64,000 nt of DNA. It comes from an uncultured Gammaproteobacteria bacterium. GTDB taxonomy: Bacteria > Patescibacteriota > Microgenomatia > Levybacterales > UBA12049. The notes below the pieces were generated by a model. The model had not been told where the DNA came from, searched no databases, and worked only from the letters and a program-made list of their open reading frames with translations. Within the stretch, counting starts at the first letter, position 1. Every line of letters starts with the position of its first letter. This document shows, in pieces, positions 15,659 to 50,863 of this stretch. The DNA is taken from positions 1,377,887 to 1,441,886 of the forward strand of contig OZ246394.1 of assembly GCA_965230895.1 (NCBI GenBank), read 5' to 3'. A program made the position numbers and the translations under genes.

Positions 15659-15889
15659 AGTTTTGCAAGTGAAATCAAGCATTGAGGCAAACCCTCTAGT
15701 AAGAGAGGGTTTGCCTGAGTGACTTGATGATAGATACTCCTTCATCTTTAGATGAATGAGGCTCTTTAAAAAGTGAAGAGAATATCCTGAATTGTGTTTT
15801 GTCTGCACCCGCAGACGTCCATGGCGCAATCCAGGATAAAATAATCATGTCTTAAATCTTTACCTACATTACGGTAGGTAAAGTTGAAA

Positions 15890-19135
<3,246 letters not shown>

Positions 19136-19213
19136 ATTTTAATAGACATGTTTTTCTCTTCACTCTTTGAGGAGCTTCGAAAGGAGCAGCTCAGTACTTT
19201 AATAACAAAAATT

Positions 19214-19324
19214 TTCTGGTGATTGAAGCATTATGGCACCACCTCTTCCCATTCCGAACAGAGAAGTGAAACGTAATAGCGCTCACGATACTACCTTCGG
19301 TGGGAAAATAGGTCGTCGCCAGAA
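19214..19324 (+). rRNA. rrf: 5S rRNA
   Basis: CCCATTCCGAACAGAGAAGTGAAAC core. Terminal helix TTCTGGTGA/TCGCCAGAA pairs. Confidence 0.8.
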
Positions 19325-31814: not shown

Positions 31815-32504
31815 GTAGAATCCTAATGCACCAAGCGGTGCAAGCCCTATAAGTGCAAGCGCTTCAGGACCGGTTTCTGGCGTTGACTTGGACTGGGTTG
31901 GGGGATAAATAGGAAGTCCACCTTTACTTGTGGTTGGTTTGTTCTGCGCTTGAGCGGTTGCATCAGTTCTACTGACGCAAGCTTTTACATTGTCTTGGCT
32001 GACTTTTCTATTCGCTTCAACTCTCGCTTGATTGATAACACAACTTATTTGTGGAGAATTGGGTAATTTATCTGCCGCAGCAACTTTTGCTTCTACAAAG
32101 TAAACTTTGTTTGATTGTTTCTCAAGCGAGTCTATAGTAAAGCTAAACGTTCGAGTCTTTGCATCATATGTCCCTGAGCCTTTTGCATACTCAAGGTAAA
32201 CAGGGAAGATATCTCTTACAGCAATATTGCTCACGGCATTATTGCCAACGTTTGAAACTGTAAGTTTGAATCGAATAGTCTGTCCTGGTTTAAATGCAGC
32301 AGCTTCTGGTGGAAGACTATCAACGTATTCTTGATTCTCTGGATTCTGGATTTGCTTGTTTATGGTGATAGGATCATTTTGTTCACAAGTTATCCCTCCG
32401 CCATAGATTTGTTCACAATTAGGAGTTTGCGCAGCAAGAGCTGGCGTAGCGAGAACGAAAAGCGAAAGAGAAGCTGCAAAAATAGATGATAATGCTAATT
32501 TCAT
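31797..32504 (-). CDS. secreted DUF11/CARDB-like surface protein with LPXTG-type C-terminal sorting signal (TPETG)
   Basis: Signal peptide. Ig-like repeat motif IRFKLTVSNVGNNAVSNIAVRD. C-terminus STPETG followed by a hydrophobic helix and RKKA. Confidence 0.5.
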   Translation of the reverse strand: MKLALSSIFAASLSLFVLATPALAAQTPNCEQIYGGGITCEQNDPITINKQIQNPENQEYVDSLPPEAAAFKPGQTIRFKLTVSNVGNNAVSNIAVRDIFPVYLEYAKGSGTYDAKTRTFSFTIDSLEKQSNKVYFVEAKVAAADKLPNSPQISCVINQARVEANRKVSQDNVKACVSRTDATAQAQNKPTTSKGGLPIYPPTQSKSTPETGPEALALIGLAPLGALGFYLRKKA

Positions 32505-35373: not shown

Positions 35374-37719
35374 TTACTTCAGGAGGCTTCGTTCTTTAGT
35401 GTACATAATCCATAAGAGAAGATTAAAAAGAGAAATAAGGAAGAATGGTAATGTCATTGCTACGCCAAATGAGAATAAGAACATGAGCTCCAGGAGAAAC
35501 GAAACAAACAACGTAAACTCAAAAAGTTCTCCTGCAACATGTTTAAATCCGAGGATGTTTGGTATTTGCACATGATCTTTCGTGTATAACGTTACCATTG
35601 ATTCTTTCTTGGTATCAGTTGCTGAGGTTAACTCCTTTTTAATAAATCCTTCTTTTGTAACAATAAGCTTCAAATACGGCTTATCAAATACATTTCTAAT
35701 CGCAAATCTGCCTATCTTGTTTGTCATTCCATGAGCCAATATCTGGCCAGTTTTTATATCCGCAACTTCAATCCGGACCCCTGTAATCGGATTCTTCTTT
35801 TCATCAATGATAAAGCCATATATATACGCTTCATAATGTTTTCTCCCTGCTACAGCAAGCCCAAAGAAAAAGTATGGGAAGAAGTTCTTCCAAGGGATAT
35901 CGGTTCGTAATTGGAACAAAAGCATAGCCAATCCAGTAATTGAAAGCAGTGCAACTGCTCCAACGAAATAGAATAAGCGTACAGAACTCGACAGGTTTTT
36001 GAAGAGGCTCGTACTGGTGTTTAAAAACTCCTTTGACCAATCATAGAATGTATTTATGAGATAGGTGAGATCAAAAGGATTCTTCTTAAGGCGTACAGTC
36101 GGATATTCTTCACCTTGTGCGGATCCAAGGGTAAACTCTACTGATTTCTGACCATAACCCCAAGCACTCACATCTACTTTATACCGGCCAGGCAAAAGAA
36201 CAGGGGAGACTTCACCAATAGAATTGGAATAAAAGATCATATCTAATGGTTCAAATGCGTTACTTTTTGTATTAAATATTGAGAGCGCAGCTCGTGCATC
36301 AGCAAGTGGAGTATTAAGCTCAGACTCTAGGATTCTAATTGGCGGACCGCTTTTAAAATCAGATATCTTTCTACTCATTATGTTACCTTTTTGATCACTT
36401 TGATACATAAGAACGTTATAGGTTCCTATCTTTCCCGTGCGTAAATGAGCGACATAAGTAATTGAGTCTTTCGTCGCCATCTTTACTCTTCGGTCTATGC
36501 CATCTGGGCCAGAAACGACAATCTCAATAGAGGATGCTTGCTGTGGTTTTGTGAATGTATAAAACACTTGATATTCCGCTGTTGTAGGCAAGATAACAAA
36601 GTTATTGTTGGCCTCTTGATTCAGGATACGCGAGAGTAAAACTGTTTCGCCACTTTTTATAACAACAGCATCATTTTGAGCTTGAGGAACCGTCGATTTC
36701 GCTGCAGTTGTGAATGTAAATATTTCTGAACGGATGCTTTGTCCGCTACTATCAATCGCCACAACTTGGAAGTAATATCGAGTTGATGGGTTCAATTGAG
36801 ATATGGTTAATGTGTTTGATCGAGCAAACGCTGAAGAAATTGCTGTTCTATTCAAGCTTGATTCATCAGTTCCATAAAGGACAGTAACTTGAGCAGGACG
36901 GTTTGTATTGACAGTAACATCCGTAGAAGAATCAGTTATCCGATCAAATCGGACATCAAGTATGCTCACATTATTTGGTTTTTGAGCCGGAGTTGGTGTC
37001 GGTGCTGTAGTTGGTGCCGGTATTGCCGTAGGTTGTGGCCCTGGTGTTGAAGTAGGTCCAGGAGTCGGGGTTGGTGTCATTGTTGGTGTCGGAGTTAGCG
37101 ATGGTATTGGTGTGAGCGTTGGAGTTGGGGTCACGAGGCTCAAATCAAATTGGTATGTCTGAGTCTCTGTTTGGTCTGGAAAGGTTATAAAATCGTTGCT
37201 CAAGCGTGCTCTTGTCGTAAAAGAAACAGGATCAGGTTCTGTATAGTTTTCGTTTGTACGGAGCTGAAATGTCACAGTCTGGTTCGTTGTTCCGGCTGGA
37301 AGTGCTGGGATCGTCCAGGTGATCGTTCTGTTCAGTAAGTCGACAACTGGTACAACTCCGCCATATGCTGTGCTCGCTGAACCAATGACATAATCAAGAA
37401 CATGGCTTCCACCTGGTGCTTCATCATCACGAAAGTCTATCGTGATTGTTGTTTCAGTATCAGTGCCTGCTGAAGCTTGGGCTCCATAGGTAACTTCATA
37501 ATTAAGGACAGTTCTCTGTGGTACAGTTGTCTGTCCATCAGAGGCAAAGTTGAATTGAAAGTCACCTTGGCTCGGTGGAACAATAGCTGTAACAGAAAAG
37601 TCCCTTCGCTCTTGGACTTGCGCATATAATTGGGTTTGGACTGTTGGCAAAAGCAATAATGTAATGATGGCAGTCACGATAAAGATTATTTTGGATTTCA
37701 GGTTATATTTCATTCTCAT
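35374..37719 (-). CDS. large surface/membrane protein: signal peptide, PT-rich linker, FN3-like domain, two carboxypeptidase-regulatory-like domains, C-terminal TM helices
   Basis: Linker TPTPTLTPIPSLTPTPTMTPTPTPGP. FN3-like block (ISQLNPSTRYYFQVVAIDSSG). CarbopepD_reg-like PGRYKVDVSAWGYG. Hydrophobic helices near the C-terminus. Confidence 0.5.
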   Translation of the reverse strand: MRMKYNLKSKIIFIVTAIITLLLLPTVQTQLYAQVQERRDFSVTAIVPPSQGDFQFNFASDGQTTVPQRTVLNYEVTYGAQASAGTDTETTITIDFRDDEAPGGSHVLDYVIGSASTAYGGVVPVVDLLNRTITWTIPALPAGTTNQTVTFQLRTNENYTEPDPVSFTTRARLSNDFITFPDQTETQTYQFDLSLVTPTPTLTPIPSLTPTPTMTPTPTPGPTSTPGPQPTAIPAPTTAPTPTPAQKPNNVSILDVRFDRITDSSTDVTVNTNRPAQVTVLYGTDESSLNRTAISSAFARSNTLTISQLNPSTRYYFQVVAIDSSGQSIRSEIFTFTTAAKSTVPQAQNDAVVIKSGETVLLSRILNQEANNNFVILPTTAEYQVFYTFTKPQQASSIEIVVSGPDGIDRRVKMATKDSITYVAHLRTGKIGTYNVLMYQSDQKGNIMSRKISDFKSGPPIRILESELNTPLADARAALSIFNTKSNAFEPLDMIFYSNSIGEVSPVLLPGRYKVDVSAWGYGQKSVEFTLGSAQGEEYPTVRLKKNPFDLTYLINTFYDWSKEFLNTSTSLFKNLSSSVRLFYFVGAVALLSITGLAMLLFQLRTDIPWKNFFPYFFFGLAVAGRKHYEAYIYGFIIDEKKNPITGVRIEVADIKTGQILAHGMTNKIGRFAIRNVFDKPYLKLIVTKEGFIKKELTSATDTKKESMVTLYTKDHVQIPNILGFKHVAGELFEFTLFVSFLLELMFLFSFGVAMTLPFFLISLFNLLLWIMYTKERSLLK

Positions 37720-37760
37720 TCAAGCATACAAAATCGCAGCAGCCTGAGCAAGGCTAGAGA

Positions 37761-38171
37761 TTATTTAACGGTGATAATAAGCTTCTCATTCTGATTATTT
37801 CGGTCAGCAACTGCAAAAGTACCCTTCTTATTAAACTGCATCTGAACGGCTTCCATATGCCCGTAGCCGCGTGGAGTTGTTAATTCTGGAGTAGTTGCTA
37901 TCAATGACATTAATTCAGTCTCATTGGTGTTTACAATTTGGATATAGCGAGTGAATCCAATCGTCACCGCATGCTTGCTAAACTTTTTTCCATCAAAGGT
38001 AACTTTCGTTATCAATGGATCATTTTGTGTACCTCCAACTGTAGTTGGTTCTGGTATCACAATTTGTTTGACATCAGAAAATCCGTTTTGCAAAACTTCA
38101 GGAAAGAAAAATGCATGTGTTAAAAATCCCGCAGCAAAAAATAAAATGCTCAGGAATATATTTTTTTTCAT
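37761..38171 (-). CDS. small secreted protein (136 aa), hypothetical
   Basis: Signal peptide MKKNIFLSILFFAAGFLTHAF. Last gene but one of the long minus-strand operon. Confidence 0.35.
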   Translation of the reverse strand: MKKNIFLSILFFAAGFLTHAFFFPEVLQNGFSDVKQIVIPEPTTVGGTQNDPLITKVTFDGKKFSKHAVTIGFTRYIQIVNTNETELMSLIATTPELTTPRGYGHMEAVQMQFNKKGTFAVADRNNQNEKLIITVK

Positions 38172-38178
38172 ATGAGGA

Positions 38179-39123
38179 TTATCTGAACAATGCCTTTAAA
38201 GCCTTGCCGAGACGCTTTCGCATGAGGTAAAGAAGGAATAATACTACAAGTGCACCTGCAGCGATTTTAACAGGGAAGACATAGAAGGTTGTGGTAGCTG
38301 AAAGGCTTTGATTTTGGGAACCATAGTACATAAGCGCAGTCGCTTTATAGCTTCCGATAAGGAATTTGTTGCTTAATTCAGAACGGAGAACTCGTTCTGC
38401 AGATGGGAAAACGTTTGTTCCAGGAACAACAATATCTGCAACTTTACGACCGAACATATCTGTCACATTGACGAGCCCAAAAGTCTTGACGTGGACATTG
38501 CCACTATTGGCAAATGTTAAGTTAAATGGAACTGGTCCATATTCAGAAAAAGTCGGTGCTTCAATTGATTTCAATTCGAGCTTCTCATCAACTGGACCGC
38601 TTACTTTAACAAGGAACAATGATGCGATTTCTTGAGAAAGTGATGCTGAATTTGGATCAGCATTTTCTGGTTTCACGCCAAAGACAAATGATCCAAATCT
38701 GCCTCCAGCAGCATCAGCTGGTGCTTTGATTATTGCTGTAACTTCCTGTTCAGCACCTGGTTGCAGTGTAAATGTCGAAGGTGAAACATTGGTCCAAGAA
38801 GCAACACTATATGGACTATCTGCTGTTAATTCAATTTGTCCTTCATCACCTTTGGCTGTAAAGTCTTCTATTCGAACTGTAACTGGTACGGAAGTATTGC
38901 TTTTATTTCTGAGGGTTGCTTTAACGGTTGTTGTCTTTCCCGGGTCGATAGATACTTCTTGTGATGGTGGAGAAACCTCAAGCCCTTGTCCTGGCACTTG
39001 TGCGGTTACATAATCGTGAATTGAATAGGCGAGCGTTGTCCCTCCTACAACTAACAAAACACTGAGCAATGCCCAGGATGCTTTATTCATTCCGTGGAGC
39101 TTGTTCAATAGTGTATGTTTCAT
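38179..39123 (-). CDS. cassette A1: secreted beta-rich protein with C-terminal TM anchor and basic tail (DUF916/DUF3324 CscA-like architecture)
   Basis: Signal peptide. C-terminal IAAGALVVLFLLYLM-RKRLGKALKALFR. Start ATG overlaps the stop of the upstream gene (TAATG). Confidence 0.5.
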   Translation of the reverse strand: MKHTLLNKLHGMNKASWALLSVLLVVGGTTLAYSIHDYVTAQVPGQGLEVSPPSQEVSIDPGKTTTVKATLRNKSNTSVPVTVRIEDFTAKGDEGQIELTADSPYSVASWTNVSPSTFTLQPGAEQEVTAIIKAPADAAGGRFGSFVFGVKPENADPNSASLSQEIASLFLVKVSGPVDEKLELKSIEAPTFSEYGPVPFNLTFANSGNVHVKTFGLVNVTDMFGRKVADIVVPGTNVFPSAERVLRSELSNKFLIGSYKATALMYYGSQNQSLSATTTFYVFPVKIAAGALVVLFLLYLMRKRLGKALKALFR

Positions 39124-40265
39124 TAGTATGTTGGTGTAGCAACGAGAATGACTGTTCCTGTATATGCTCCAGCAGGCTGAATACCATTAACTTCTGCTTC
39201 CCAACCTAATCGGACTGTTTCATTTGTAACTCCAGCAGCACTACAGATAACTTCTGCACCTGCTGTTGATGATCCTGCCCATTTCGCTCCACCACTTGTG
39301 AATCTTGCAGCAGTTCCAGTACAAAGCGTTGCATCTTCAGTTGAATATCCAAAGTATCCTGTGTTTGTATTTGCTGTTGTACCTGCTGGTGAACTCCATG
39401 TTGTTGGTGAAGCATTTGTGCCAGTCCAAGTATCAATATTATTTGTCGACCCTGAAATCAATGGAGGATTCCCCGATTGAGCATTTGCTGAATGAGATGC
39501 TGTCACTGTATAACCGTTCGCTGCGTTCGTACTGATTGTTACATCATGTGCTGCGATCTTTGGAGCACCATTTGCTAATGTTCCGAAAGGAATAGTTGTT
39601 GCAGTTGAAGTTACGTTAACGTTTCCTGATCCACCGTTGAAGTTTCCACCAGTTGAAACGCCAGCGACACTAAAGGAAAAGCTTGGATCAACCGTAGCTG
39701 AAACTGCAATTGAAGTTGTATCTAATACTGCAAATGCTGCAGTTGTTGGGCCGTCGATAACGGTTGAACCAGTGTCTGAATAGGTAGTTGTTCTTGCATA
39801 ATATGTTGTATTAGCACCTGATGGGTTCGTGACTCCTGTGAAGTTAACAAACATAGCCTGAGTTGATTGGGTTGATGGAGTAGTGACAACTACTCGAAAT
39901 GCATTTGCAGATGGAGCGGAGTTTGTTCTTCCGGTACCAGCGATGTTGTCAGTTTGAATTGTTGGGGTTCCTGAATTAAATCCAGCAGGAGCATTACATG
40001 TTCCAGAAGCGGTGGTACAAATCTGGATATCAATTTGTTTGATCGCAGTAGTAGCTGTCGTCGTCCAGTTAAACCCATAGGTAACATTGGATGCAGATGC
40101 TTGCGAATTGTTAATAGTTACTTTGTAGCTCGTTAATGTGCCGGCATTTGCTTTCGCTGCATACATATTTACTACAGGGGGGAGAAGCAGTAATAAGATT
40201 AAGAGCAAAGTCGATGTAATCTTTATCTGTGTTTTTGTAAGATTTTTCAATTTTTGAGCAGACAT
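39123..40265 (-). CDS. cassette B1: secreted Thr/Ser/Gly/Asn-rich protein, conserved C-terminal W-containing domain (WxL-like, inferred)
   Basis: Signal peptide. No anchor. C-terminal block PTTWSS...GYFGYSTEDATL...RFTSGGAKWAG...VILVATPTY shared with B2 and B3. Confidence 0.5.
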   Translation of the reverse strand: MSAQKLKNLTKTQIKITSTLLLILLLLLPPVVNMYAAKANAGTLTSYKVTINNSQASASNVTYGFNWTTTATTAIKQIDIQICTTASGTCNAPAGFNSGTPTIQTDNIAGTGRTNSAPSANAFRVVVTTPSTQSTQAMFVNFTGVTNPSGANTTYYARTTTYSDTGSTVIDGPTTAAFAVLDTTSIAVSATVDPSFSFSVAGVSTGGNFNGGSGNVNVTSTATTIPFGTLANGAPKIAAHDVTISTNAANGYTVTASHSANAQSGNPPLISGSTNNIDTWTGTNASPTTWSSPAGTTANTNTGYFGYSTEDATLCTGTAARFTSGGAKWAGSSTAGAEVICSAAGVTNETVRLGWEAEVNGIQPAGAYTGTVILVATPTY

Positions 40266-40319
40266 AGGGCAAGATAAAACTATCAGTACATTAAGAATAA
40301 ATTAAAGAGCTGTGCGATG

Positions 40320-41285
40320 TCAAGGACGAATTAAGGCTTTTATAGCCTCAGAAAAGCGTTTTCGTTTAAGAATTATAAACAGTAAGAATATTAAGACTAA
40401 GACAAGCCCGAATGCATGAGCAAACGGAAATACAATAAAATATCTTTCATCTGTAATAGTTTGACCGTTGCCTGTCGAGACGGTTAGCGCTGCCCTATAA
40501 ATGTTTGGAGAAAGACCTTGAATTTTAGCTTCTTCAGTCCATCTTCGGACACCACCTGGGAATATGATTTTCTCTTCAAGTTCGATCTTTTGTTTGCTGG
40601 TTGCTGGAATAAGTGGTTCAACTGTCAGATCTGGTTTTGCTGAGAAGAAATTCAAGGCGATATTTTTAACGCGTAATAATAAAGGAACTGTACCTTCTTG
40701 ATTCCAGTAAGGTAAAGAAAAATCAAGAATCTCAGCTTTCTTTGCATTTGGATCTGGAACGCCGATGTTTGCGAGCATTAAAATTCCGACTTTGGCATTA
40801 ACTCTTGTGGCGTCAGTGGGAGCGTTCACTAAAACTGGTTCAAAAAAGAGTACACCATAATATCCACCAACAGGAATTGATTTTGGTGTCTGTATTGCCA
40901 TCTGTAATGTTTTCTTTTCCTTGGGACCGAGGATGAATTCGTTCTCGCTTAATGAAACCCATGAAAGAAGAGGATTCGTTTTTGATTCTTCAAAGATATA
41001 TCCACCTTCTTCGCCACTTGTTATGAAATCATTGAAAGATGCACGCAATGGCATAGGGGATGATGATAAGTTTTCGATTGTCACTTCCTGTTGTATTGTT
41101 TTGTCTGGGGATAAGGAAAGATTCATTATGACAGGTGACACTCGAAGTGTCTGCTCTTGTGCATATGCATTTTGAGCAGATAACAACGATACCACCATTA
41201 ATAATGGGGTCATTAAAGCTAGGTTTATACACTTTGATATATTAAATCTCATATTTAGCCATGAACTATTAATAACTAGGTACAA
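40320..41285 (-). CDS. cassette A2: paralogue of A1 (signal peptide, C-terminal TM anchor, basic tail)
   Basis: C-terminus LVLVLIFLLFIIL-KRKRFSEAIKALIRP. Overlaps B2 by 17 nt. Confidence 0.5.
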   Translation of the reverse strand: MYLVINSSWLNMRFNISKCINLALMTPLLMVVSLLSAQNAYAQEQTLRVSPVIMNLSLSPDKTIQQEVTIENLSSSPMPLRASFNDFITSGEEGGYIFEESKTNPLLSWVSLSENEFILGPKEKKTLQMAIQTPKSIPVGGYYGVLFFEPVLVNAPTDATRVNAKVGILMLANIGVPDPNAKKAEILDFSLPYWNQEGTVPLLLRVKNIALNFFSAKPDLTVEPLIPATSKQKIELEEKIIFPGGVRRWTEEAKIQGLSPNIYRAALTVSTGNGQTITDERYFIVFPFAHAFGLVLVLIFLLFIILKRKRFSEAIKALIRP

Positions 41286-42366
41286 CTATATATAATACGG
41301 TACTACTATACTTAGCTGCCTTTTGAGATGCAGCGGTTTGGACTCTATATGTGATCGTAAATTGCTCGTTAACGATAGCTGAAGTCACAGGTCCTGCATG
41401 ATCAGCTACTGGGTCTCCTGGAGTAGAGGTTGTGAATCCTGCATACTTAGGTCCACCGATGGTGAATCGGTCCGCCGTTCCTCCAGTTAAGCTACTATCA
41501 TTTGTAGTATAGCCGAATCCGTTGCCTGACCATGTCGTTGGTGCTGAATTTGGACTTGAATAATCAGCAATCGTGCCAAATCCTGTTGCCGTAAGTGGTC
41601 CAGTTGATCGTGCGTTAACCACATAACCATTATATGCATTGGTTGAAGTCGTAAGTGTCGTTGTTTTACTACCATCAGTATAGGAATTTCCGGAGTTCAG
41701 ATTGCTGAAAGTTACGTTATTTGAATCAACACTAAAGGTGAGGGAGGGCGTAGTCGTTGCCGCTTGCGCTGTTGGTCCGTATTCACTCTCAGTATAATCT
41801 CCCTGTCTAGCCTTTACTTTAATAGTATATGTTGTTCCTTGTAATAGACCCGTTACATATTCTCCGCTGGCTCCGCCCCAGTCCGTATAAGTTTGGAAAT
41901 CAGCACTTGTTAATGTCGTTCCAATAGTATTGTCACTTTTGATATAGCGGACGTCACTGACGAAATTATCAGAACTTATGGAAATAGCATATTCAGCATC
42001 GGCGGGATTATTGCTTGTATTGAGTATAAATTGTAAGCGGTCATAATTACTCGATGGATTTGTAAAAGTCGGTACTCCAGGGACGTGAGCTTTCATAATA
42101 TAAGTCAGTCCTGACCCCATTTGGAAATTTGTACTCGAAGGTCTCCCAAATTCTATTTGTCCAGCTACGCCATAGAGTCCAAAGTTACTTGAGGTACTAT
42201 TCGTTGTTCCACCGGAACCAAACGAATATTCCTGAATTCTGTAGTTGGTACTGGCTGGGTATGCAGCAAACGCAATAAGGGTGAGAGGTGAGAAATGAGA
42301 TGTTAGAAATATGATCAAAACCAGAATGGGCAGTTTATGTTTCATACTAATAGTATACCTACTCAC
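41269..42366 (-). CDS. cassette B2: paralogue of B1
   Basis: C-terminal block PTTWSGNGFGYTTNDSSLTGGTADRFTIGGPKYAG...STVLYIVVPSY aligns with B1. Confidence 0.5.
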   Translation of the reverse strand: MSRYTISMKHKLPILVLIIFLTSHFSPLTLIAFAAYPASTNYRIQEYSFGSGGTTNSTSSNFGLYGVAGQIEFGRPSSTNFQMGSGLTYIMKAHVPGVPTFTNPSSNYDRLQFILNTSNNPADAEYAISISSDNFVSDVRYIKSDNTIGTTLTSADFQTYTDWGGASGEYVTGLLQGTTYTIKVKARQGDYTESEYGPTAQAATTTPSLTFSVDSNNVTFSNLNSGNSYTDGSKTTTLTTSTNAYNGYVVNARSTGPLTATGFGTIADYSSPNSAPTTWSGNGFGYTTNDSSLTGGTADRFTIGGPKYAGFTTSTPGDPVADHAGPVTSAIVNEQFTITYRVQTAASQKAAKYSSTVLYIVVPSY

Positions 42367-42387
42367 TTGGTACTTTGCATATGGTTG

Positions 42388-42807
42388 CTAGATTGGCAAA
42401 TAGAAGACTTGTAACCCGAAGAGGGCATGGAGGTACTCAAACGTAGCGATCTGAGGAATACTTTTTTTGTTACAGACCACTGACATAATTGCTTTCGAAA
42501 ATGTCAGGTCTACTGAATCGCTCGATTCAACCGTTCTGATGGCTTGCTTCATCTCTGCGGATTCAGGAAAGATGATATTTATAGAACTTAAAGATATTGC
42601 TCTCAGATAATCTCGAGCTAGGGAAGGGCTGATCGTATTGTAGATAGTCGTGTATGTGTCATTCACCGTCATAATGCTTGCATATAGCTGATATTTCTCC
42701 TGGGCGAAGTATCTAAAGTACGCCGAAGCTTGCACATGTTTTGGATGTGCTCGATCTATAAAGGCGATGAAGCCATCTGGTGCTATGTATACTTTTTTAC
42801 TGACCAT
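42388..42807 (-). CDS. PIN-like protein (possible VapC-type toxin), low confidence
   Basis: N-terminal VYIAPDGFIAFIDRAHPKH resembles the PIN first strand/acidic residue. 139 aa. Immediately downstream of an HTH gene. Confidence 0.3.
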   Translation of the reverse strand: MVSKKVYIAPDGFIAFIDRAHPKHVQASAYFRYFAQEKYQLYASIMTVNDTYTTIYNTISPSLARDYLRAISLSSINIIFPESAEMKQAIRTVESSDSVDLTFSKAIMSVVCNKKSIPQIATFEYLHALFGLQVFYLPI

Positions 42808-42823
42808 AGATTAGGTTTGAAAC

Positions 42824-43180
42824 TTATTTTTCCTGTAATACCAGTCCAGCCCCTCTTCCTTGTAGTCTAAGCAGGGGATCGTCCTGTGTAAATTGTTTGT
42901 CCAATAAACGGTTACTTTTGAAGATTCTTGGTTGTTGTTCTGCGGTTGCTACTTCTTTGTGAAAATCCTGCAATGAGTCTTCTTCTACCCGAATGTTGCC
43001 ACCGACCTTTATCGCTTTTAGTCGTTTGTTCTTTATATACCGACGAACTGTCAGGGGGTGGACTCTAAGAATAAACGCTACTTGCTTAACGCTTAAAAGA
43101 TTATTCATATATCTATAGAGTAAAACGTATTGGCTGGAGAGTAAAGAGCCACTTTTATCTATCCATGAAAAAGTATGCAT
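42824..43180 (-). CDS. excisionase-family (HTH_17) DNA-binding protein
   Basis: LSVKQVAFILRVHPLTVRRYIKNKRLKAIKVGGNIRVEEDSLQDF matches the MerR-superfamily/excisionase HTH. First gene of the operon, divergent from the 2527-aa gene. Confidence 0.55.
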   Translation of the reverse strand: MHTFSWIDKSGSLLSSQYVLLYRYMNNLLSVKQVAFILRVHPLTVRRYIKNKRLKAIKVGGNIRVEEDSLQDFHKEVATAEQQPRIFKSNRLLDKQFTQDDPLLRLQGRGAGLVLQEK

Positions 43181-43279: not shown

Positions 43280-46200
43280 ATGAAGTATATCTTGCCCGTC
43301 CTGCGCCAAAAATCTTATTTGAGGCTAACTAGCCTTATTCTTTGCGTGGTAGTAGCTTCGGGAAGTATATTCATGGCTATCAAGCCTGCTTTTGCTGCTA
43401 CAGGAATTAACCAGACCATCAACTTCCAAGGTAAGTTAGTCGGTTCAACAGGATTGAATGTAGCTGATAGCACGTACAGCGTCGTTTTCACGCTCTATGA
43501 TGCGAGCTCAGGAGGCACGAACCTCTGGGACGAAACGCAAAGCGTATCGACCACTGATGGTATCTTCCAGGTTCAGTTAGGTTCAGTCGATACAACTTTG
43601 GGCAATGTCGATTTCAACACAGATAATCTCTATCTCGGCATCAAAGTCGGAGCTGATGCAGAAATGACTCCTCGTATTCGTTTTGCGGCAGTTCCATATG
43701 CCTTCAATGCTCAAAAAGTAGCAGGTTTGACAGTCACAAATACGACTGGAACACTTACTATACCAAATGGCAAGACAATCGAATTTGCCGACTCATTCAC
43801 TACTACAGGGGGAAATGCTCTAACTCTAGCCACAACTGGCACTACAAGTATCACTTTGCCAACTACAGGCACCCTACTGACAAACACTGCCACATCAAAC
43901 CAAACGATTACATCGACTCAGACTTCAGGCACGATTTTGGGATTAACTGACTCAACAAACATTACTGGCGCAACTACAGGACTAGCCATAAGCATGACTG
44001 GTACGGGTGCGTTTGATCAGACTGGCTTATCTTTTAACTTGTCTGGAGCAACTGGATCCAACACAAATGATATCGTCGGATCCGGTGGGACATGGAAAGT
44101 TAGCAGATCTGGTGACCTTACTGTTAATTCATGTACAGGTTGTACTGGCGGCCTAGCTAATTATTGGAGACTGGCAAATGGTGCATTCTCACCTGTCAAT
44201 GATACGACTGATCTTTTGATCGGAAGTGCAGCTTCAGCGTCTGCGAAGTTTGGCTTCCTCAACGTCGCAAATGGTGGAACTCCAACCGCATCTATCTCCG
44301 CCAACTCCGGAAATAATGCGACATACCTCATGGGTACCGGTATTCTCGCAACAACAAACAAACAAACGCTTACCTTGGGTCAAGCATCGACCGGAAATAT
44401 TGTAATTGGTACGGATGCTACTGCGCGCACTGTTACGATTGGCAACAATACTGGAGCGAGTGCCTTAGCGTTTACTTCAGGGACGGCAGCTCAAACATTT
44501 ACTTCATCAGCGACTACAGGAACAGCATTCTCTTTTGTCGGTAACTCAGTCAACACAGGAACTGGTCTTGGATTGACTGCAAATGGTTTGACGAATGGTA
44601 ATGCACTTTCAGTCACGTCAACTGCGACAGCGCTTGGATCAGGAAGGATGCTTAATATATCAAAGACAGGAGCTTCTGGATCAACTGCCTTCACAGGCGA
44701 TATCGCAAACATTGCTTACTCACAAACATTCAACAATGGAGTTGGCCTTAATCATACAGGCAATGTTATGGACCTCTCCCGAAATATTACATTGAACGTA
44801 GCTCAGACTCAAACAATTTCAGGTGCATTGATGTCACTCTCTGATTCAGCGACACAATCACTCGGTACGCTTAACAGCACAGCAGATGTCCTTGCGATCA
44901 CTCAGAACTATGCAGCAAACACTGGAGCTGCATTGAATATAACATCTGCTACAAATAATGGCTTAATCTTCCGAGCGAATGATGATGGAACTCTCACTGA
45001 TTCGACCCCATTTGTTATAGATGGAGGTGGTGAAGTCGGTATCGGGACAACGGCACCAAACGCTACATTGGATGCTCGAGGAATCCTCGGGACAACTCCA
45101 GTCGCTTCATTCTCTGGTTCTACAGCGATGGCATCAATGGTCGTTGACCAATCAGGCATTGGAGATCTCTTTACCGCGAGTAAATCCGGAGCTACCAAGT
45201 TTGCCGTTTTAAACAATGGAAACCTCTCTATGAATAACTACAACAACTGTACGATGTTGACGACAATCGGAACTGTCTTAACTTGTGGCTCTTCTCCAGC
45301 TGCGTCTACACAATATGTTCGATTAAATAATGGTGCCTTCTCATTTGTGAACGACACGGCTGATTTTCTTATCGGAAACACATCATCAGCCTCAGCGAAG
45401 TTTGCTTTCCTCAATGTGAACTCTGGAACACCAACTGCATCGATTTCTGCGAATTCTGGCAACAATGCTGCATACTTTTCAGGAGATGGTGTCCTGGGGA
45501 CAACTAATGCACAGACATTGCAATTAGGATCAGCGTCAACCGGAGATATTCAATTAAAGCCTGGAAATAATGCAAATAGTTTATATCTTGCTTCAAGTGG
45601 ACGAGTAAGTATCGGAAATCCTGCATTAACAACAGGAGTTGTAAATCTCGTAAATAATGGTCTTCCAACGGGTGATCCAACTTTGGTCATCCAACAAGGT
45701 ACAGGACAAACCGGAGACTTGATGCAATTCAGAAATTCCTTGGGAAATCTCATCGGCAAAGTTGATTCTTCAGGAAATATCGCAGCGCCAAACTTTGTCG
45801 ACCTTGCGGGAACAGGTCCATATCTATCCTTCGGAGGCGCAGCAACAATTTTGGATACTCGTACAGGGAGCAATACTGGATTAGTTCTCAAAGCCGGTGG
45901 AACAACACAAACAGGTAACTTGCTTGAAGTACAAAATAATGGCGGTGGAGTGCTTTCAAAGTTTAATGGCATCGGCCAGTTGGGTCTCGGTGCTGGAACA
46001 AATAGTTTGCTTGCGACACTTGATGCTCGAGCCCTCTCTGGTACGCAGCCAGTGGCATCTATCTCCGGACAAACAGCACAATCCTCATTGGTTGTTGATC
46101 AATCAGGAACTGGTGATATCTTCGCAGCTTCAAAGTCTGGCGCGACAAAGTTTGTAATCAATAATGCTGGTAATGTACGAATTGCGAACTTTACTTCAAC

Positions 46201-49200
46201 TGATGGTCTTATCACAGCTGATGTTAATGGAGTCTTAACACAAAATGCAAATGCATCACTCAATAGTTTTGGTGACCTCAATACTCGATATATTACGACG
46301 AACGCTACAGTTGAAGCGAGAACCTATCAAGCGAATGAAAACGCGTTAATTGTTAATCAAGGTTCTACTTCACCAACAGCTGCGGCAGCGCTCATTAAAG
46401 GTGGTACAACTCCAGGGGCTACTGCAGATCTTTTGCAACTCCAAAACAGTGGAAGCACTACGCTTGCACGATTCAATAGAAATGGCCAATTAGTAATCCA
46501 AGCAAATGGTGGCACAACACCAAATGCTTCAATCTCTGGAACTACAAGTTTCGCGTCTCAAATCGTTGATCAGGCTGGTGTAGGTGACATTTTCACTGCC
46601 TCAAAATCTGGTGCAACCAAATTCACAATCTTGAACAATGGCAACCTCTCAATGAACAATTACAATAACTGCGGAATGTTAACAACAACAGGAACTGTTC
46701 TGACATGTAGTTCTGCACCGGCAGGTGGAACTAACTATTGGAACCTCGCAAGTGGAACTTTGGCTCCAGTAAATACGACGCTTGATCTGTTGGTCGGAGG
46801 GACAGCCAGTAATTCAGCAAAGTTCGCAGTACTTAATATGAATTCAGGAACTCCAACAGCAAGTATTTCAGCAAATTCAGGTGGGAATGCAACATACCTA
46901 ACTGGAGACGGCACACTGTCCACAACACTTAATAAGACATTGAGTTTGAATCCAAATGGAGGAAACGTAGGAATCGGGACAACAAATGCTACACAAAAGC
47001 TTACAGTGAATGGAAGAATCAGAACAGATGGAGGTATGGTCTTCAGTCAAGGATTAGCTCCAACAGCTAATTTCATTTATGTCGGAGGAGATACTGCTGG
47101 CGCTACAGATCAACAGTTTGGGTTTGTCCTTGCAGGAGTTGGTTCAACCACAACTGCACAAGGAGGATACTTTGTAGGCCGCGGAAATAACTTTAGTGAC
47201 ATCTTGAATCAGAGAGGAAATATGTATTTTGCTGCAGGTAATCCAAGCTCACCAGGCGCACTTGAAGGATCGCTCAACTTCTTAACAGGAAATGAAGTGA
47301 ATAGAATGATGATTACAAACGCTGGTACCATCGGTGTTGGGACGACATCTCCTTTGGCAACACTTGATGTTCGAGGACAATCTGGAACACTTCCAGTTGC
47401 ATCTGTTTCAGGTCTTACCGCAATGGCGGCTTTGGTTGTAAATAATAATGGCATAGGAGATCTCTTTACAGCGTCAAAGAGTGGATCTACAAAAGTTGCC
47501 ATCACAAACACAGGAACACTCGCAGTTGGTTCATTTACACGAGCATCAGCTGCGACAACTCCAAAGGATCAACTCCATCTTTGGGGCAATGGTTCGTTGG
47601 GGAGTAATGCAATTATCCATTTCGGTGACGTCGCTAATGATTCCAATGCATATATTAAAGAAGCAACAACAGGTGATAGTGATCAACTGGAACTTGGTGG
47701 GCGACAAGGTTTGATCTTTGCAACTGGTACAAATACCTCTTATGGATTTGAACGAATGAGAATCGATGCAAGTGGAAACGTGGCAATTAATAATACTGGA
47801 ACTGCACAAGCTACATTTGATGTTCGAGGCATATCAGGTACAAATCCAGTTGCATCAGTATCAGGTACAACTTCACGGGCAGCAATGGTGGTAAACAATG
47901 ATGGTGTGGGAGATCTCTTCACTGCAAGTAAATCTGGATTACCAAGATTTGTCATCGACAATAGCGGTAATGTAAAGATCGGTACATCAGTATCAGGTGC
48001 AAGACTTCAAGTAACAGGAAACAGTGGTTATGGTGTACTTCTCGGCGCTGGTGCTGGTGGAGGAAATACAATTGACGGAACTTTAAATGGTGTAGCAAAT
48101 GAAGCTTTATGGCTTAACTCAATCTCAGAAAAAGATGTTTATATCGTTCCAAATAATGGAAGTGTCGGTGTTGGTACGAACGATTCAAGTGAGGGAAAGC
48201 TCACCGTAGCCGGGACATATACGAACGCAGCTTCTGATTATTCCGGTCTATTCGTCAATCCAACCTTTAGCCAAACGAGTAATAGCAGTAATGCATATTA
48301 TGGAACTCGAACCCAAGCTCTCTATGGAAGTGCATTTAACCTTGCAGAATTGGATGGAGCAGTCAATAACAGTGCCTTCTATGGAGCGGGGACACTCACG
48401 ATCTTGCGAGGATCATACAATCAGGCAAGTATCTCTCAGGGGACCACCGGTACTGCAAATTATGCTCAAGGTGTGGTTGGTGAAGTTGTCCATCGAGGCG
48501 TGGGAACAATTGTAGAAGCAACAGGTCTCGTTGGTACCGTCAGTCTCCAATCAAGTGGCACAGGTAACGATGGAGAAATCACAGGAGCTGCAGGTGTGAT
48601 TGGTTATGTCCAAAATAACCTCAGTGCAAACACAGGAACAATTGGTACCGGAACAGCGATCTATGCAGGCGCACCAACCGCATCAGCAAATGCTCCAATC
48701 ACAAACACAAGAGGTGTCTATATCGAGAACCAAGGATCTGCTGGCGTAACCAATGCAACAGGTCTCTACGTAGAAGGACAAAGCGGAGCAAGCGGCACAA
48801 ACTATGCCGCAATCTTTGCTAGTGGAAGAGTAGGTATCGGTACAACTGGACCTGCTGCGGTTTTGGATGTAAATGGAGATATTAAGGCGAGTGCAACAAT
48901 AACAAATACAGGATCTCTTGCTGGGCTTTCTATGGCAGTGGGTAATGATTCAGATGCAGATACACTCAGTGCTCTTTCAATTGATGTTACATCCGCATCC
49001 ACTGGAGATTCTGATAATGTCTACGGTCTTAATGTTGGCAATTTGACGGGAGCTGGTTCAACAGTAAACGAAAGTGGAATTAGAGTTGGAACTGGCTGGG
49101 ACAATGATATTGAATTCTCAGATAGTGCTCCAAATATCAAACTTGGTGCCACAGATAATACTTCAGAACTTACATTTACTGATGCTTCTTCAAATGTTCT

Positions 49201-50863
49201 CTTGAGAATGAGAGATATGAGTACTAACTTTGGAGCAGCGCTTTATGCGGGTGCATTTATTAACTTTAACAGTATGGTAGCTGAAGAATTCAATAGAACC
49301 CGTACTTCATTGTCTGCTGATACAACTGGTGCTCAGAATGGTGCTTTTGGTAACGGTGGTGGATGGGGTGTTTATGAAGGTGGAACAACTCCGAATTGTA
49401 CCTTTTCGACGCTTGCAGATACTGTCAATGGTATTACTCGCATGTCAGCGAACGCTGCTGCAACAGGTTGTATGACTATGATAGATGACTCAATAAATAA
49501 CGCAAAGCTTATGTATAACGTTTCAAATCTGCCAATCATCGTTATGAAAATTCGACCATCCCAAGCTGATACTACAAGTGGAGTATATGCTGGATTAGGA
49601 GATTCAACTGATGGTGCTGTTGCTGCCCCCACTAATTTTATTGGATTTTCAAACGATAATGCTGGAACACTTGGAAACACTTGGAGAGGCATTACTCGAT
49701 CAGGAGGAACCTCTACTACAGTTACATGTACTGGACAAACAGTTTCGACAACCCAATTTGCACTTCTTGTTATTGAAGTACGATCTTCTACAAGTGTTCG
49801 ATTCTTTATGGATAATGATGTTTCAAATGGTGTCAATTTGACTGAATGCGGATCGGGGAGTACTACCAATATTTATACAAGTAATCTTGCTCCTCAAATT
49901 CATTGGCAAGAAAGAAGTGGTGGATCAGCTTCCAATTTGGACTTAGACTTCTATCGAACTTGGCAGGACGATGCTCCAATGACTGATGGACTTACTGCTT
50001 CGCAGCCAGAAGCTTTAACTTTTGACGCTCCAGCTTCTGAATCAGCCACACTTGATACTCATGATGTTGTCTTGAGTACCTTAACTCAAGATGAAACAAG
50101 CGAGGGTGCAGATATCGAAGATGATACAACTGGAGAACTTTTAGCTGGACTGGATCCATTAAAAGGACGAGTTGATGAACTTGAAAATAAAGTTGCTTCA
50201 ATGGAGGCAAAACTTAATGATGTCAATATTGCAACACCGGCTGCATTTACAACTGTGTCTGTCGAGTCATCAAACTCTGCAGAAACAACTGAACTTGTGA
50301 AAACAGATAACTTGTCAGTTGCGGGGCTTGCGACTGTTTCAGCGAATTTGAGAGTCCAAGGGAACGGTTTGATCGAAGGTATCCTCAATGTCGTCGATAC
50401 ACTTACGGTAAGCAATTTCATCGTCAATAAATTGGCAACATTCTTTGGTGACGTTGTTTTCCATAGTGATGTCATTTTCAAAGGCACACCATACTTCAAT
50501 GCAGACACTGCTGGTTATGTCACTATCGCAAAGGGTTCAGACAAAGCAGAAGTGAAATTCACTAAGCCATACAAGAATGAACCAGTAGTCAATGCAAGTG
50601 TTGTGACGACAAAGCTTTCAGATGATGCGTTCAAGAAGCATGTTGAAGAAAACACATGCGAAGCAGATAAAGGAAAAGATATGTGTGAGCAAGTTGCTAC
50701 ACAAGAAGCGCTTGAAGATTCAATGCCATACATTATTGCATCTCGATCCAAAGAAGGATTTACCATTTTACTTTCTCAACCAGCCACCCAAGATCTAACG
50801 TTCTCATGGAGTGCGCTTGCGGTGATTCAGGCAGAAGAACTTGTGAAAGGAGGTGATAGATAA
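43280..50863 (+). CDS. giant secreted repeat protein (2527 aa), fibre/adhesin-like
   Basis: Signal peptide (AFA|ATG). N-terminal FQGKL...VPYAFNA domain. Five 60-aa LDxRG...GDLFTASKSGATKF repeats. Many IGTT.P...L.V.G beta-repeat motifs. C-terminal coiled coil (RVDELENKVASMEAKLNDV). Terminal domain shared with the 1433-aa protein. Confidence 0.7.
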   Translation: MKYILPVLRQKSYLRLTSLILCVVVASGSIFMAIKPAFAATGINQTINFQGKLVGSTGLNVADSTYSVVFTLYDASSGGTNLWDETQSVSTTDGIFQVQLGSVDTTLGNVDFNTDNLYLGIKVGADAEMTPRIRFAAVPYAFNAQKVAGLTVTNTTGTLTIPNGKTIEFADSFTTTGGNALTLATTGTTSITLPTTGTLLTNTATSNQTITSTQTSGTILGLTDSTNITGATTGLAISMTGTGAFDQTGLSFNLSGATGSNTNDIVGSGGTWKVSRSGDLTVNSCTGCTGGLANYWRLANGAFSPVNDTTDLLIGSAASASAKFGFLNVANGGTPTASISANSGNNATYLMGTGILATTNKQTLTLGQASTGNIVIGTDATARTVTIGNNTGASALAFTSGTAAQTFTSSATTGTAFSFVGNSVNTGTGLGLTANGLTNGNALSVTSTATALGSGRMLNISKTGASGSTAFTGDIANIAYSQTFNNGVGLNHTGNVMDLSRNITLNVAQTQTISGALMSLSDSATQSLGTLNSTADVLAITQNYAANTGAALNITSATNNGLIFRANDDGTLTDSTPFVIDGGGEVGIGTTAPNATLDARGILGTTPVASFSGSTAMASMVVDQSGIGDLFTASKSGATKFAVLNNGNLSMNNYNNCTMLTTIGTVLTCGSSPAASTQYVRLNNGAFSFVNDTADFLIGNTSSASAKFAFLNVNSGTPTASISANSGNNAAYFSGDGVLGTTNAQTLQLGSASTGDIQLKPGNNANSLYLASSGRVSIGNPALTTGVVNLVNNGLPTGDPTLVIQQGTGQTGDLMQFRNSLGNLIGKVDSSGNIAAPNFVDLAGTGPYLSFGGAATILDTRTGSNTGLVLKAGGTTQTGNLLEVQNNGGGVLSKFNGIGQLGLGAGTNSLLATLDARALSGTQPVASISGQTAQSSLVVDQSGTGDIFAASKSGATKFVINNAGNVRIANFTSTDGLITADVNGVLTQNANASLNSFGDLNTRYITTNATVEARTYQANENALIVNQGSTSPTAAAALIKGGTTPGATADLLQLQNSGSTTLARFNRNGQLVIQANGGTTPNASISGTTSFASQIVDQAGVGDIFTASKSGATKFTILNNGNLSMNNYNNCGMLTTTGTVLTCSSAPAGGTNYWNLASGTLAPVNTTLDLLVGGTASNSAKFAVLNMNSGTPTASISANSGGNATYLTGDGTLSTTLNKTLSLNPNGGNVGIGTTNATQKLTVNGRIRTDGGMVFSQGLAPTANFIYVGGDTAGATDQQFGFVLAGVGSTTTAQGGYFVGRGNNFSDILNQRGNMYFAAGNPSSPGALEGSLNFLTGNEVNRMMITNAGTIGVGTTSPLATLDVRGQSGTLPVASVSGLTAMAALVVNNNGIGDLFTASKSGSTKVAITNTGTLAVGSFTRASAATTPKDQLHLWGNGSLGSNAIIHFGDVANDSNAYIKEATTGDSDQLELGGRQGLIFATGTNTSYGFERMRIDASGNVAINNTGTAQATFDVRGISGTNPVASVSGTTSRAAMVVNNDGVGDLFTASKSGLPRFVIDNSGNVKIGTSVSGARLQVTGNSGYGVLLGAGAGGGNTIDGTLNGVANEALWLNSISEKDVYIVPNNGSVGVGTNDSSEGKLTVAGTYTNAASDYSGLFVNPTFSQTSNSSNAYYGTRTQALYGSAFNLAELDGAVNNSAFYGAGTLTILRGSYNQASISQGTTGTANYAQGVVGEVVHRGVGTIVEATGLVGTVSLQSSGTGNDGEITGAAGVIGYVQNNLSANTGTIGTGTAIYAGAPTASANAPITNTRGVYIENQGSAGVTNATGLYVEGQSGASGTNYAAIFASGRVGIGTTGPAAVLDVNGDIKASATITNTGSLAGLSMAVGNDSDADTLSALSIDVTSASTGDSDNVYGLNVGNLTGAGSTVNESGIRVGTGWDNDIEFSDSAPNIKLGATDNTSELTFTDASSNVLLRMRDMSTNFGAALYAGAFINFNSMVAEEFNRTRTSLSADTTGAQNGAFGNGGGWGVYEGGTTPNCTFSTLADTVNGITRMSANAAATGCMTMIDDSINNAKLMYNVSNLPIIVMKIRPSQADTTSGVYAGLGDSTDGAVAAPTNFIGFSNDNAGTLGNTWRGITRSGGTSTTVTCTGQTVSTTQFALLVIEVRSSTSVRFFMDNDVSNGVNLTECGSGSTTNIYTSNLAPQIHWQERSGGSASNLDLDFYRTWQDDAPMTDGLTASQPEALTFDAPASESATLDTHDVVLSTLTQDETSEGADIEDDTTGELLAGLDPLKGRVDELENKVASMEAKLNDVNIATPAAFTTVSVESSNSAETTELVKTDNLSVAGLATVSANLRVQGNGLIEGILNVVDTLTVSNFIVNKLATFFGDVVFHSDVIFKGTPYFNADTAGYVTIAKGSDKAEVKFTKPYKNEPVVNASVVTTKLSDDAFKKHVEENTCEADKGKDMCEQVATQEALEDSMPYIIASRSKEGFTILLSQPATQDLTFSWSALAVIQAEELVKGGDR
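45040..47990 (+). repeat. five near-identical intragenic repeat units (about 180 nt each) inside the 2527-aa gene, nested in three larger repeats of about 1.2-1.4 kb
   Basis: Protein repeats at nt about 45040, 46020, 46530, 47330 and 47810. SGTPTASISANSGNNATYL recurs at about 44280, 45420 and 46860. Nucleotide-level similarity is visible (e.g. GGAGATCTCTTTAC(C/A)GCG). Confidence 0.6.

Follow-up and report, generated by a model that had tools for sequence, protein, structure and literature searches.

INTRODUCTION

Bacteria of the candidate phyla radiation (CPR; Patescibacteria) make up a large part of bacterial diversity and live mostly attached to other cells, by machinery that is barely known. 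A pilus of the Pam type was first described in one of them, Ca. Mycosynbacter amalyticus (Saccharimonadia), where PamA and PamB form filaments, seen by cryo-electron microscopy, whose subunits are joined by donor-strand exchange and carry paired cysteines (bioRxiv 10.64898/2026.03.03.709456). According to the same preprint, the pam operon also encodes PamE and PamT, the latter a single-domain tip without a linker strand, as well as PamC and PamD, FimC/PapD-like chaperones with an unusual C-terminal transmembrane (TM) helix; there is no usher. PamR, which combines fibronectin type III (FnIII, FN3) structure, a TM helix and an N-terminal strand, was proposed there as pilus terminator or anchor. 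Pam homologues were reported mainly from Saccharimonadia and Microgenomatia, with a conserved neighbor called 'tail fibre-like protein'. NCBIfam release 20 now carries models for PamT (NF058579) and for the Pam pilin C-terminal domain (NF058581). Here we analyze a set of eight minus-strand genes at positions 35374-43180 of a 64,000-nucleotide stretch of contig OZ246394.1 (assembly GCA_965230895.1), hereafter the window, with positions counted from its first letter. We find that this locus probably encodes a Pam-type pilus of a CPR bacterium (Patescibacteria, Microgenomatia, Levybacteria-like).

A second system of relevance is the WxL/Csc surface complex, in which WxLIP, composed of DUF916, DUF3324 and a TM helix, is predicted to complete the beta-sandwich of the WxL protein with one of its strands (PMC10599100). 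The Pam preprint makes no mention of WxL or DUF916, and in the searchable literature we found no link of WxL to chaperone-usher or donor-strand assembly. A first-pass annotation of the window, made from the letters alone, had likened the locus to WxL/Csc clusters and called such a system not described for genomes of this type. The second statement is outdated, given the 2026 preprint (bioRxiv 10.64898/2026.03.03.709456) and the NCBIfam Pam models.

RESULTS

An open reading frame (ORF) scan of the window places all eight genes on the minus strand, in the transcription order helix-turn-helix (HTH) protein (118 aa), 139-aa protein, B2 (365 aa), A2 (321 aa), B1 (380 aa), A1 (314 aa), 136-aa protein and 781-aa protein. 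B2 (41269..42366, minus strand; 358 aa from the likely start at 42345) is a secreted PamT-like pilin, and B1 (39123..40265, minus strand) a secreted two-domain pilin. Both have a signal peptide and, by hydropathy, no TM anchor, which agrees with the first-pass annotation. Their C-terminal ~140 residues are 35% identical (E 6e-16). This similarity goes beyond composition and includes the block PTTWS...GFGY...RFT.GG.K.AG...P.Y, which the annotation had rightly singled out as conserved. The C-terminal domain of B2 matches the NCBIfam model CPR_Pam_pilin_C (NF058581) at E 6.9e-6 over model positions 3-148 of 148, under the curated cutoff of 55 bits, and B1 orthologs of other CPR lineages match it at E 4e-9 to 2e-7. 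All 32 members of the B2-family alignment do so as well (best E 5.2e-13). A set of 53 diverse C-terminal domains of B proteins, drawn from many CPR lineages, gave 50 matches to NF058581 (best E 1.8e-14) and none to Pfam WxL (PF13731) at E<=1. Because of these two counts, we assign the domain to the Pam-type pilins and abandon the earlier view of B as a WxL-type protein. Profile searches of the PDB with B profiles returned no WxL chain either. Judged by sequence, the C-terminal ~150 residues of B1 and B2 can be regarded as homologous to the C-terminal domain of Pam pilins, a truncated immunoglobulin (Ig)-like, strand-accepting domain; the matches point to homology at the superfamily level, not to membership by NCBI threshold. 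Separately, Pfam DUF4402 is weakly matched by 8 of the 53 domains (best E 2.3e-4).

Outside this domain the two pilins differ. B2 consists of the signal peptide, a Gly/Ser/Asn/Tyr-rich N-terminal segment of ~55 aa, an inserted FN3-like domain and the Pam-type C-terminal domain (41272-41733). Its signal peptide and first ~55 mature residues match NCBIfam CPR_pilus_PamT (E 2.7e-10), a match shared by 30 of the 32 family members (best E 1.4e-17). On these matches we take B2 to be PamT-like at its N-terminus, with an FN3 insertion, and not a PamT equivalog. Without the ~115-aa FN3 domain, the 358 aa of B2 would come close in length to the PamT model, at 241. No donor-strand motif was found in B2. 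In B2-type proteins, and in the giant proteins described below, the FN3 domain is followed immediately, with no strand between, by P[ST][LF]TFSV, the strand with which the C-terminal domain opens. B1, on the other hand, is composed of a signal peptide, a beta-rich N-terminal domain, the linker strand IAVSATVDP (39684-39710) and the Pam-type C-terminal domain (39126-39608), and contains four Cys. A strand of the form TSIAVSATVDP lies directly before the C-terminal domain in 36 of 88 B1-type proteins by regular expression, with consensus frequencies of 0.5-0.8, and the number of Cys is even in 84 of the 88.

In the AlphaFold2 (AF2) model of B2, the FN3-like domain (residues 85-200) is predicted with pLDDT >90 and the C-terminal domain with pLDDT 35-70. 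Foldseek searches with this model returned FN3 folds only, the C-terminal domain being too poorly modelled for a comparison between pilin and WxL folds. Its low confidence would fit, if weakly, an incomplete fold in need of a donated strand. Sequence and profile searches of the PDB with B2, B1, the B2 family, the A family and the broad alignment of B C-terminal domains gave nothing relevant. PamA and PamB (PDB 25PZ, 25QA) were not among the matches, perhaps because they lie outside the searched set or are too distant. Database homologs of B2, from Patescibacteria, number 582, and a B1-type pilin of another CPR lineage has more than 1160. M. amalyticus has no entry among the 120 listed homologs of a B1-type pilin from a record labelled 'Saccharibacteria'.

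Each pilin gene is followed by an A gene. A2 (40320..41285, minus strand; 310 aa from the likely ATG start at 41252) is a membrane-anchored two-domain chaperone-like protein, and A1 (38179..39123, minus strand) is its paralog, with the same topology and 25% identity end to end (E 1e-18). The signal peptide, beta-rich ectodomain, single C-terminal TM helix and Lys/Arg tail read earlier from the letters are borne out by hydropathy and by the AF2 model of A2, in which the ectodomain forms two beta-sandwich domains. The paralogs have a PapD/WxLIP-like fold and place their C-terminal helix in the membrane; this combination of a FimC/PapD-like fold with a C-terminal TM helix is also that of PamC and PamD. 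Pfam WxLIP_PGBD (DUF916, PF06030) is matched by A1 (E 1.4e-4, 22.3 bits) and A2 (E 8e-4, 19.9 bits) below the gathering threshold of 27.3 bits; A1 has further weak matches to FixG_C and fn3_5. Within the A family, 27 of 40 members match WxLIP_PGBD (best E 5e-8), and cassette partners in two loci of other CPR lineages, L075 (35.3 bits) and L066 (27.6 bits), exceed the gathering threshold. DUF3324 (PF11797) was found in none of the 40 members at E<=0.01, and the second domain of A2 aligns with WxLIP at the fold level only (Foldseek, 259 columns to 9i25_C). A2 also matches RbmA, over one domain only, and has 101 database homologs. Taken together, the profile matches identify the A proteins as putative divergent relatives of DUF916/WxLIP. 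The WxL/Csc analogy is right for A, at least for its DUF916 part, and for the general logic of an anchorless subunit with a C-terminally anchored, strand-donating partner; it is wrong for B. As a side observation, the first mature strand of A2, VIxNLSLSP (41110-41136, minus strand; residues 41-49 of the 310-aa form), recurs in 10 other A2-type orthologs and has a loose resemblance to the donor-strand motif that B1 shares with the 781-aa protein.

The pilin-chaperone pairing is conserved. With the B2 alignment as query, 80 loci were recovered from species-representative genomes. For synteny, 84 related loci were retrieved with B alone, their ORFs called and then searched with a profile of each window protein. 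A is present in 82 of the 84. Of the 158 A genes in these loci, which contain 176 B genes, 146 come immediately after a B gene of the same orientation, with junctions mostly of -20 to +30 nt. This arrangement is far beyond chance, and the B-A pair noticed in the window is co-conserved in other genomes. Twenty of the loci are of a giant type, described below. In the 62 non-giant loci, the canonical order is fibre (divergent), [HTH, PIN-like], B2, A2, B1, A1, 136-aa, [781-aa]. B2-A2 pairs (55) and B1-A1 pairs (68) form distinct orthogroups in fixed order, and each B type is paired with its own A type across named CPR lineages. The cassette occurs in Levybacteria, Gottesmanbacteria, Roizmanbacteria, Woesebacteria, WWE3, Berkelbacteria and Dojkabacteria, and the closest named relatives of the window proteins are from Levybacteria (66-67% identity). 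Dozens of records labelled 'MAG TPA_asm: uncultured Gammaproteobacteria/Pseudomonadales' (L005, L008, L009, L012-L014 and others) also carry this CPR-specific cassette, as do single records of Methylomirabilota, Limisphaerales, Bacteroidia, Elusimicrobia and Acidimicrobiia. Those with non-CPR labels are almost certainly mislabelled or contaminated bins. 'Saccharibacteria' labels are doubtful too, since one pilin so labelled has its nearest named relatives in WWE3 and Dojkabacteria.

The 781-aa membrane protein (35374..37719, minus strand) ends the gene set. It comprises a signal peptide, the strand FSVTAIVPP (37573-37599), a beta-rich domain, a Pro/Thr linker, an FN3-like domain and CarboxypepD_reg, with TM segments by hydropathy near positions 576-600 and 737-755 of the protein. 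Pfam matches to CarboxypepD_reg (E 2.9e-10, two stretches), Pur_ac_phosph_N (E 5e-7) and fn3 (E 4e-4) confirm its earlier description as an FN3/CarbopepD_reg membrane protein. Fifteen of 16 full-length orthologs carry the strand motif, in variants such as LAVSATVPP and LSITATVNP, at the N-terminus of the mature protein; the motif is nearly identical to the linker strand of B1. In 452 unrelated ORFs it has a background frequency of 0.14 per 1000 aa. An RbmA-like protein of the PamR type, with two FnIII domains and a single TM helix, could not be distinguished among the operon proteins.

Three smaller genes complete the set. The 136-aa protein (37761..38171, minus strand) has an N-terminal TM anchor, at which GFxTHAxFFPD is conserved, and a beta domain of ~85 aa. 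Its gene directly follows the last A gene in 42 of the 62 non-giant loci, and it has no match among Pfam or NCBIfam families or in the PDB. We propose it as an accessory component. The first gene (42824..43180, minus strand) encodes an HTH_17/excisionase-family DNA-binding protein (Pfam HTH_17, E 1.5e-10; NCBIfam excise domain, E 1.9e-9), likely a regulator. Its 118 aa are those of the maximal ORF; gene callers start it at 43108, giving 94 aa, and give 358 aa for B2. It is found in 24 of the 62 non-giant loci, always with the gene for the 139-aa protein (42388..42807, minus strand), a weakly PIN/VapC-like cytoplasmic protein with which it forms a conserved pair. The PIN-like label retains some support at the family level, where the profile matches VapC26 (PDB 5x3t, E 0.0093, residues 7-127) and 4 of 21 members match Pfam PIN (best E 3.3e-5); these traces are weak, and the window protein itself has no Pfam match.

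Across a divergent intergenic region lies the 2527-aa secreted fibre-like protein (43280..50863, plus strand), with at least five repeat modules of ~80 aa. Fibre homologs adjoin the cassette in 50 of the 62 non-giant loci. The fibre has no Pfam or PHROG match, lacks the Pam-type C-terminal domain (E 12 with the hidden Markov model of the B C-terminal domain) and shows no detectable similarity to the giant B fusions. This conserved neighbor is probably a functionally linked adhesin. The 20 giant-type loci, which belong to other CPR lineages, have in place of B2 a protein of ~700-3,500 aa (most are of at least 1,700) that ends in a C-terminal domain of the B (Pam) type. Loci with such a protein include L062, L064, L066-L069, L072-L079 and L081-L084 (for example L075:4601-10693 and L067:2-10474), from WWE3, Berkelbacteria and Woesebacteria as well as from records labelled Saccharibacteria. 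The giant protein of L075 contains DUF7483 repeats, Laminin_G_3 and Ig_J_second, and matches a phage tail-fibre PHROG (E 2.5e-51). Its make-up suggests a fibre adhesin to which an acceptor domain of a pilus has been joined. The 136-aa gene, the fibre and the HTH gene are all absent from the 20 giant-type loci. A gene of the Beta-lactamase2 family flanks the fibre gene in the window (51233-52186, plus strand) and, in distant CPR loci, lies directly upstream of the giant fibre-pilin fusion (L075:3630-4604, L082:3630-4589), so that its linkage with the fibre or giant fusion is conserved.

With regard to gene layout, much of the first-pass annotation holds. All eight co-directional ORFs were recovered at 35374-43180 with spacers of at most 54 nt: in gene order 16 nt, 21-42 nt, 16 nt (alternatively 17 nt of overlap), 54 nt, 1 nt of overlap, 7 nt and 41 nt. 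The operon is read divergently from the fibre gene, and the identities between the B C-termini (35%) and between the full-length A proteins (25%) uphold a tandem duplication of a two-gene cassette. The B1/A1 junction does read TAATG, the start of A1 overlapping the stop of B1 by 1 nt. The 17-nt overlap of B2 and A2 exists only with a TTG start of A2. An alternative ATG 33 nt downstream begins MRFNISK..., gives a canonical signal peptide and a 16-nt spacer to B2, and is the likely start; one gene caller uses it (310 aa), and the NCBI-sourced version (297 aa) begins further downstream. With a 1-nt overlap at one junction and probably a 16-nt spacer at the other, the 1:1 co-translation claimed earlier was an over-reading. 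A fixed 1:1 stoichiometry would also not be expected, because the chaperone acts transiently in the Pam/chaperone-usher model. Neither is the sequence markedly AT-rich, as had been stated; the GC content of the window is ~41%. A 10/12 match to a sigma-70-like promoter (40294-40323, minus strand) lies inside the 54-nt A2-B1 spacer and might give the shaft pilin its own promoter, in a region whose matches are at chance level.

The window is chromosomal and CPR-like, with a 23S-5S pair and no 16S in its 64 kb. An NCBI contig of 1.61 Mb also encodes proteins identical to proteins of the window. A tRNA gene (15584-15656, plus strand) lies ahead of the 23S (15889-19139, plus strand) and 5S (19215-19324, plus strand) genes. 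The 23S match spans 3251 nt versus 2925 model positions, which implies an insertion of ~325 nt; no Rfam intron family was matched at the gathering threshold. Genes nearby encode Rho, a LysM/M23 peptidase, RadA, S1, an ATP-dependent DNA ligase and a TrwB/DUF87 ATPase. The last of these, a 742-aa protein resembling type IV coupling proteins (29586-31814, plus strand), and a DUF11 surface-repeat protein (31797-32504, minus strand) both lie next to Rho, a few kb from the operon. No usher or secretin family was matched among the eight operon proteins and the scanned neighbors. By hydropathy, N-terminal hydrophobic signals are present in B1, B2, A1, A2, the 136-aa protein, the 781-aa protein and the fibre, and in neither the HTH nor the 139-aa protein. 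Further away, a 1433-aa ORF (55826-60127, minus strand) has N-terminal Phage_int_SAM_1 (E 2.7e-17) and SAM_4 (E 3e-12) matches, no catalytic integrase domain and nothing detected in its remaining ~1200 aa.

DISCUSSION

The locus is a real and strongly conserved feature, best read as a Microgenomatia variant of the usher-less donor-strand-exchange Pam pilus. The idea of a dedicated, conserved, multi-component cell-surface apparatus, put forward by the first-pass annotation, is well supported. Polymerization, chaperone function and anchoring we infer here from the genes. After Sec export, each A protein would hold its own B protein, with a beta-strand completing the B C-terminal domain. B2 would be the tip, because its N-terminus matches PamT, its length without FN3 is about that of PamT, it has no linker strand and its position is the one taken by the giant fusions; in other lineages, a giant fibre fusion would replace it. 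B1 would be the polymerizing shaft subunit, because it has a beta-rich N-terminal domain, a conserved linker strand and even Cys counts as in PamA and PamB. Its strand IAVSATVDP would enter the C-terminal domain of the preceding subunit. The 781-aa protein is a candidate PamR-like terminator or anchor, because its N-terminal strand resembles the B1 linker in 15 of 16 orthologs and because it has an FN3-like domain and TM segments. By donating FSVTAIVPP, it would tie the filament to the membrane. The HTH and PIN-like proteins may regulate the operon, the fibre may act with the pilus as an adhesin, and the filament may serve attachment to a host cell or surface.

Several points weigh against this reading. 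All Pam matches fall under the NCBIfam curated cutoffs (the best reach ~50 versus 55 bits, and 40 versus 240 for PamT). The B2 match to the PamT equivalog model NF058579 (40.1 bits versus a cutoff of 240) covers model positions 10-78 only, and the window B1 itself has no direct match to a Pam model. Comparison with the known filament-forming subunits PamA and PamB was through the NCBIfam models and the preprint descriptions, not by direct alignment. Two fold searches with the A2 model ranked Enterococcus faecium WxLIP first, above PapD/FimC-type chaperones, and this nearest solved relative of A is described as the stable partner of a non-polymerizing WxL protein. The architecture of the 781-aa protein differs from that of PamR, and its gene is linked in only 20 of the 37 loci with enough flank and absent from giant-type loci; its anchor role is for this reason the weakest step. 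No ATP synthase genes were found near the locus, unlike the Pam neighborhood of the preprint. Lastly, promoter and terminator scans of the region gave matches at chance level, and operon boundaries follow from spacing only.

The WxLIP relationship raises the alternative of a static coat akin to WxL/Csc, in which each anchored A would permanently hold one B by beta-strand complementation and no polymer would form. Two methods place WxLIP first among the structural matches of A2, WxLIP_PGBD is recognized in 27/40 A-family members with two partners of other lineages above threshold, and B and A genes are tightly coupled one-to-one. We nevertheless consider such a coat unlikely. The B C-terminal domains match the Pam pilin (50/53) and never WxL (0/53), and PamA and PamB, which match the NF058581 domain model, form filaments experimentally. 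Moreover, the extra linker strand of B1, recurring in the membrane protein, is explained by polymerization and termination, not by a static 1:1 complex.

It is also conceivable that only the B-A pairs form a functional unit, and that the genes around them (for the fibre, the 136-aa and 781-aa proteins and the HTH/PIN-like pair) are unrelated and stay nearby by chance or through common regulation. The tip, shaft and anchor roles would then be wrong, even for pilins that polymerize. The partial linkage of the 781-aa gene (20/37 informative loci) would fit this, as would the lack of the 136-aa gene, fibre and HTH gene in giant-type loci, a fibre with neither a Pam-type domain nor similarity to the giant fusions, and an operon whose unity rests on spacing, with promoter and terminator matches at chance level. 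We judge this even less likely than a static coat. Of the 62 loci with no giant protein, 50 have the fibre next to the cassette and 42 the 136-aa gene, a conserved tail-fibre-like neighbor is known independently from the preprint, and the N-terminal motif of the 781-aa protein matches the B1 linker far above background. A tail-fibre or receptor-binding module derived from a prophage or mobile element, suggested by the tail-fibre PHROG and Ig_J_second matches of one giant fusion in another lineage and by the excisionase-family HTH gene at the head of the set, is highly improbable, as the window fibre has no PHROG match, the flanks are housekeeping (Rho, LysM/M23 peptidase, 23S-5S rRNA, RadA, S1), the cluster is chromosomally conserved across many CPR species, every structural part has a Sec signal peptide and the A proteins are anchored in the membrane.

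If the locus is read as a Pam-type pilus, an usher-less pilin with its own anchored chaperone is a widespread, strictly syntenic module across named CPR lineages. The role assignments are concrete: a PamT-like subunit or giant fusion as tip, a donor-strand pilin as shaft and an anchor with a matching strand. As far as the searchable literature shows, the link of Pam-type chaperones to WxLIP appears unreported, and the one-pilin-one-chaperone orthogroups, the replacement of the tip by giant fibre fusions and the strand motif common to shaft linker and membrane protein are new. More speculatively, and on balance doubtfully, Pam chaperones and Firmicutes WxLIP (DUF916) may form one family. Pam and WxL/Csc would then be two branches of an ancient usher-less strand-complementation pathway in monoderms, and the pilin C-terminal and WxL domains divergent versions of one strand-accepting fold. 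If true, this would contradict the preprint's view of Pam as CPR-exclusive and would predict that WxL proteins are chaperoned, and possibly polymerized, by strand exchange. The WxLIP link reaches lactobacilli, listeriae and enterococci, and its extension to the partners would change the view of WxL clusters, which bear on virulence and probiotic adhesion.

How, then, does this locus compare with known systems? It shows no detectable sequence similarity to the chaperone-usher pili (Pap, Fim, Caf1, CFA/I, Csu), from which it further differs in having no usher or outer membrane, membrane-tethered chaperones and an extra N-terminal domain of the pilin. The fold of TasA is camelysin-like and probably different from that of the pilins here. 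Like the locus, the TasA/TapA system of Bacillus subtilis involves usher-less, Sec-dependent strand complementation in a monoderm, with an accessory protein that gives a strand, but it has no PapD-like chaperone (PMC9674648, PMC10151520). WxL/Csc of Lactobacillales and Bacillales (PDB 9i1y, 9i25) is closer: there, too, a protein with a signal peptide, two Ig-like domains and a C-terminal TM helix is encoded adjacent to an anchorless secreted partner predicted to be completed by a donated beta-strand, in a monoderm without an usher. The B proteins, in contrast, have neither WxL similarity nor a double Trp-x-Leu motif, and DUF3324 is undetected by sequence. No LPXTG motif, as in a CscD-like protein, is visible in the operon proteins, whose relatives are from CPR bacteria and not from Firmicutes. 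WxL proteins are described as peptidoglycan-bound and non-polymerizing, whereas the relatives of B, PamA and PamB, form filaments.

The Pam pilus is the closest counterpart, though not identical. There are two pilin genes here versus four (PamA, B, E and T), B2 contains an inserted FN3 domain, which a protein of PamT's length lacks, and the candidate anchor is a 781-aa multi-TM protein versus the two-FnIII, single-TM, RbmA-like PamR. The locus also has the 136-aa membrane protein and the HTH/PIN-like pair, and it lies outside an ATP synthase or CorB/MFS neighborhood. The two have in common pilins with a Pam-type C-terminal domain, a two-domain pilin (B1) with a linker strand and probably paired Cys, a PamT-like B2, two anchored chaperones and no usher, together with a giant fibre-like neighbor, an FN3 membrane protein with an N-terminal strand as candidate anchor and a distribution restricted to the CPR.

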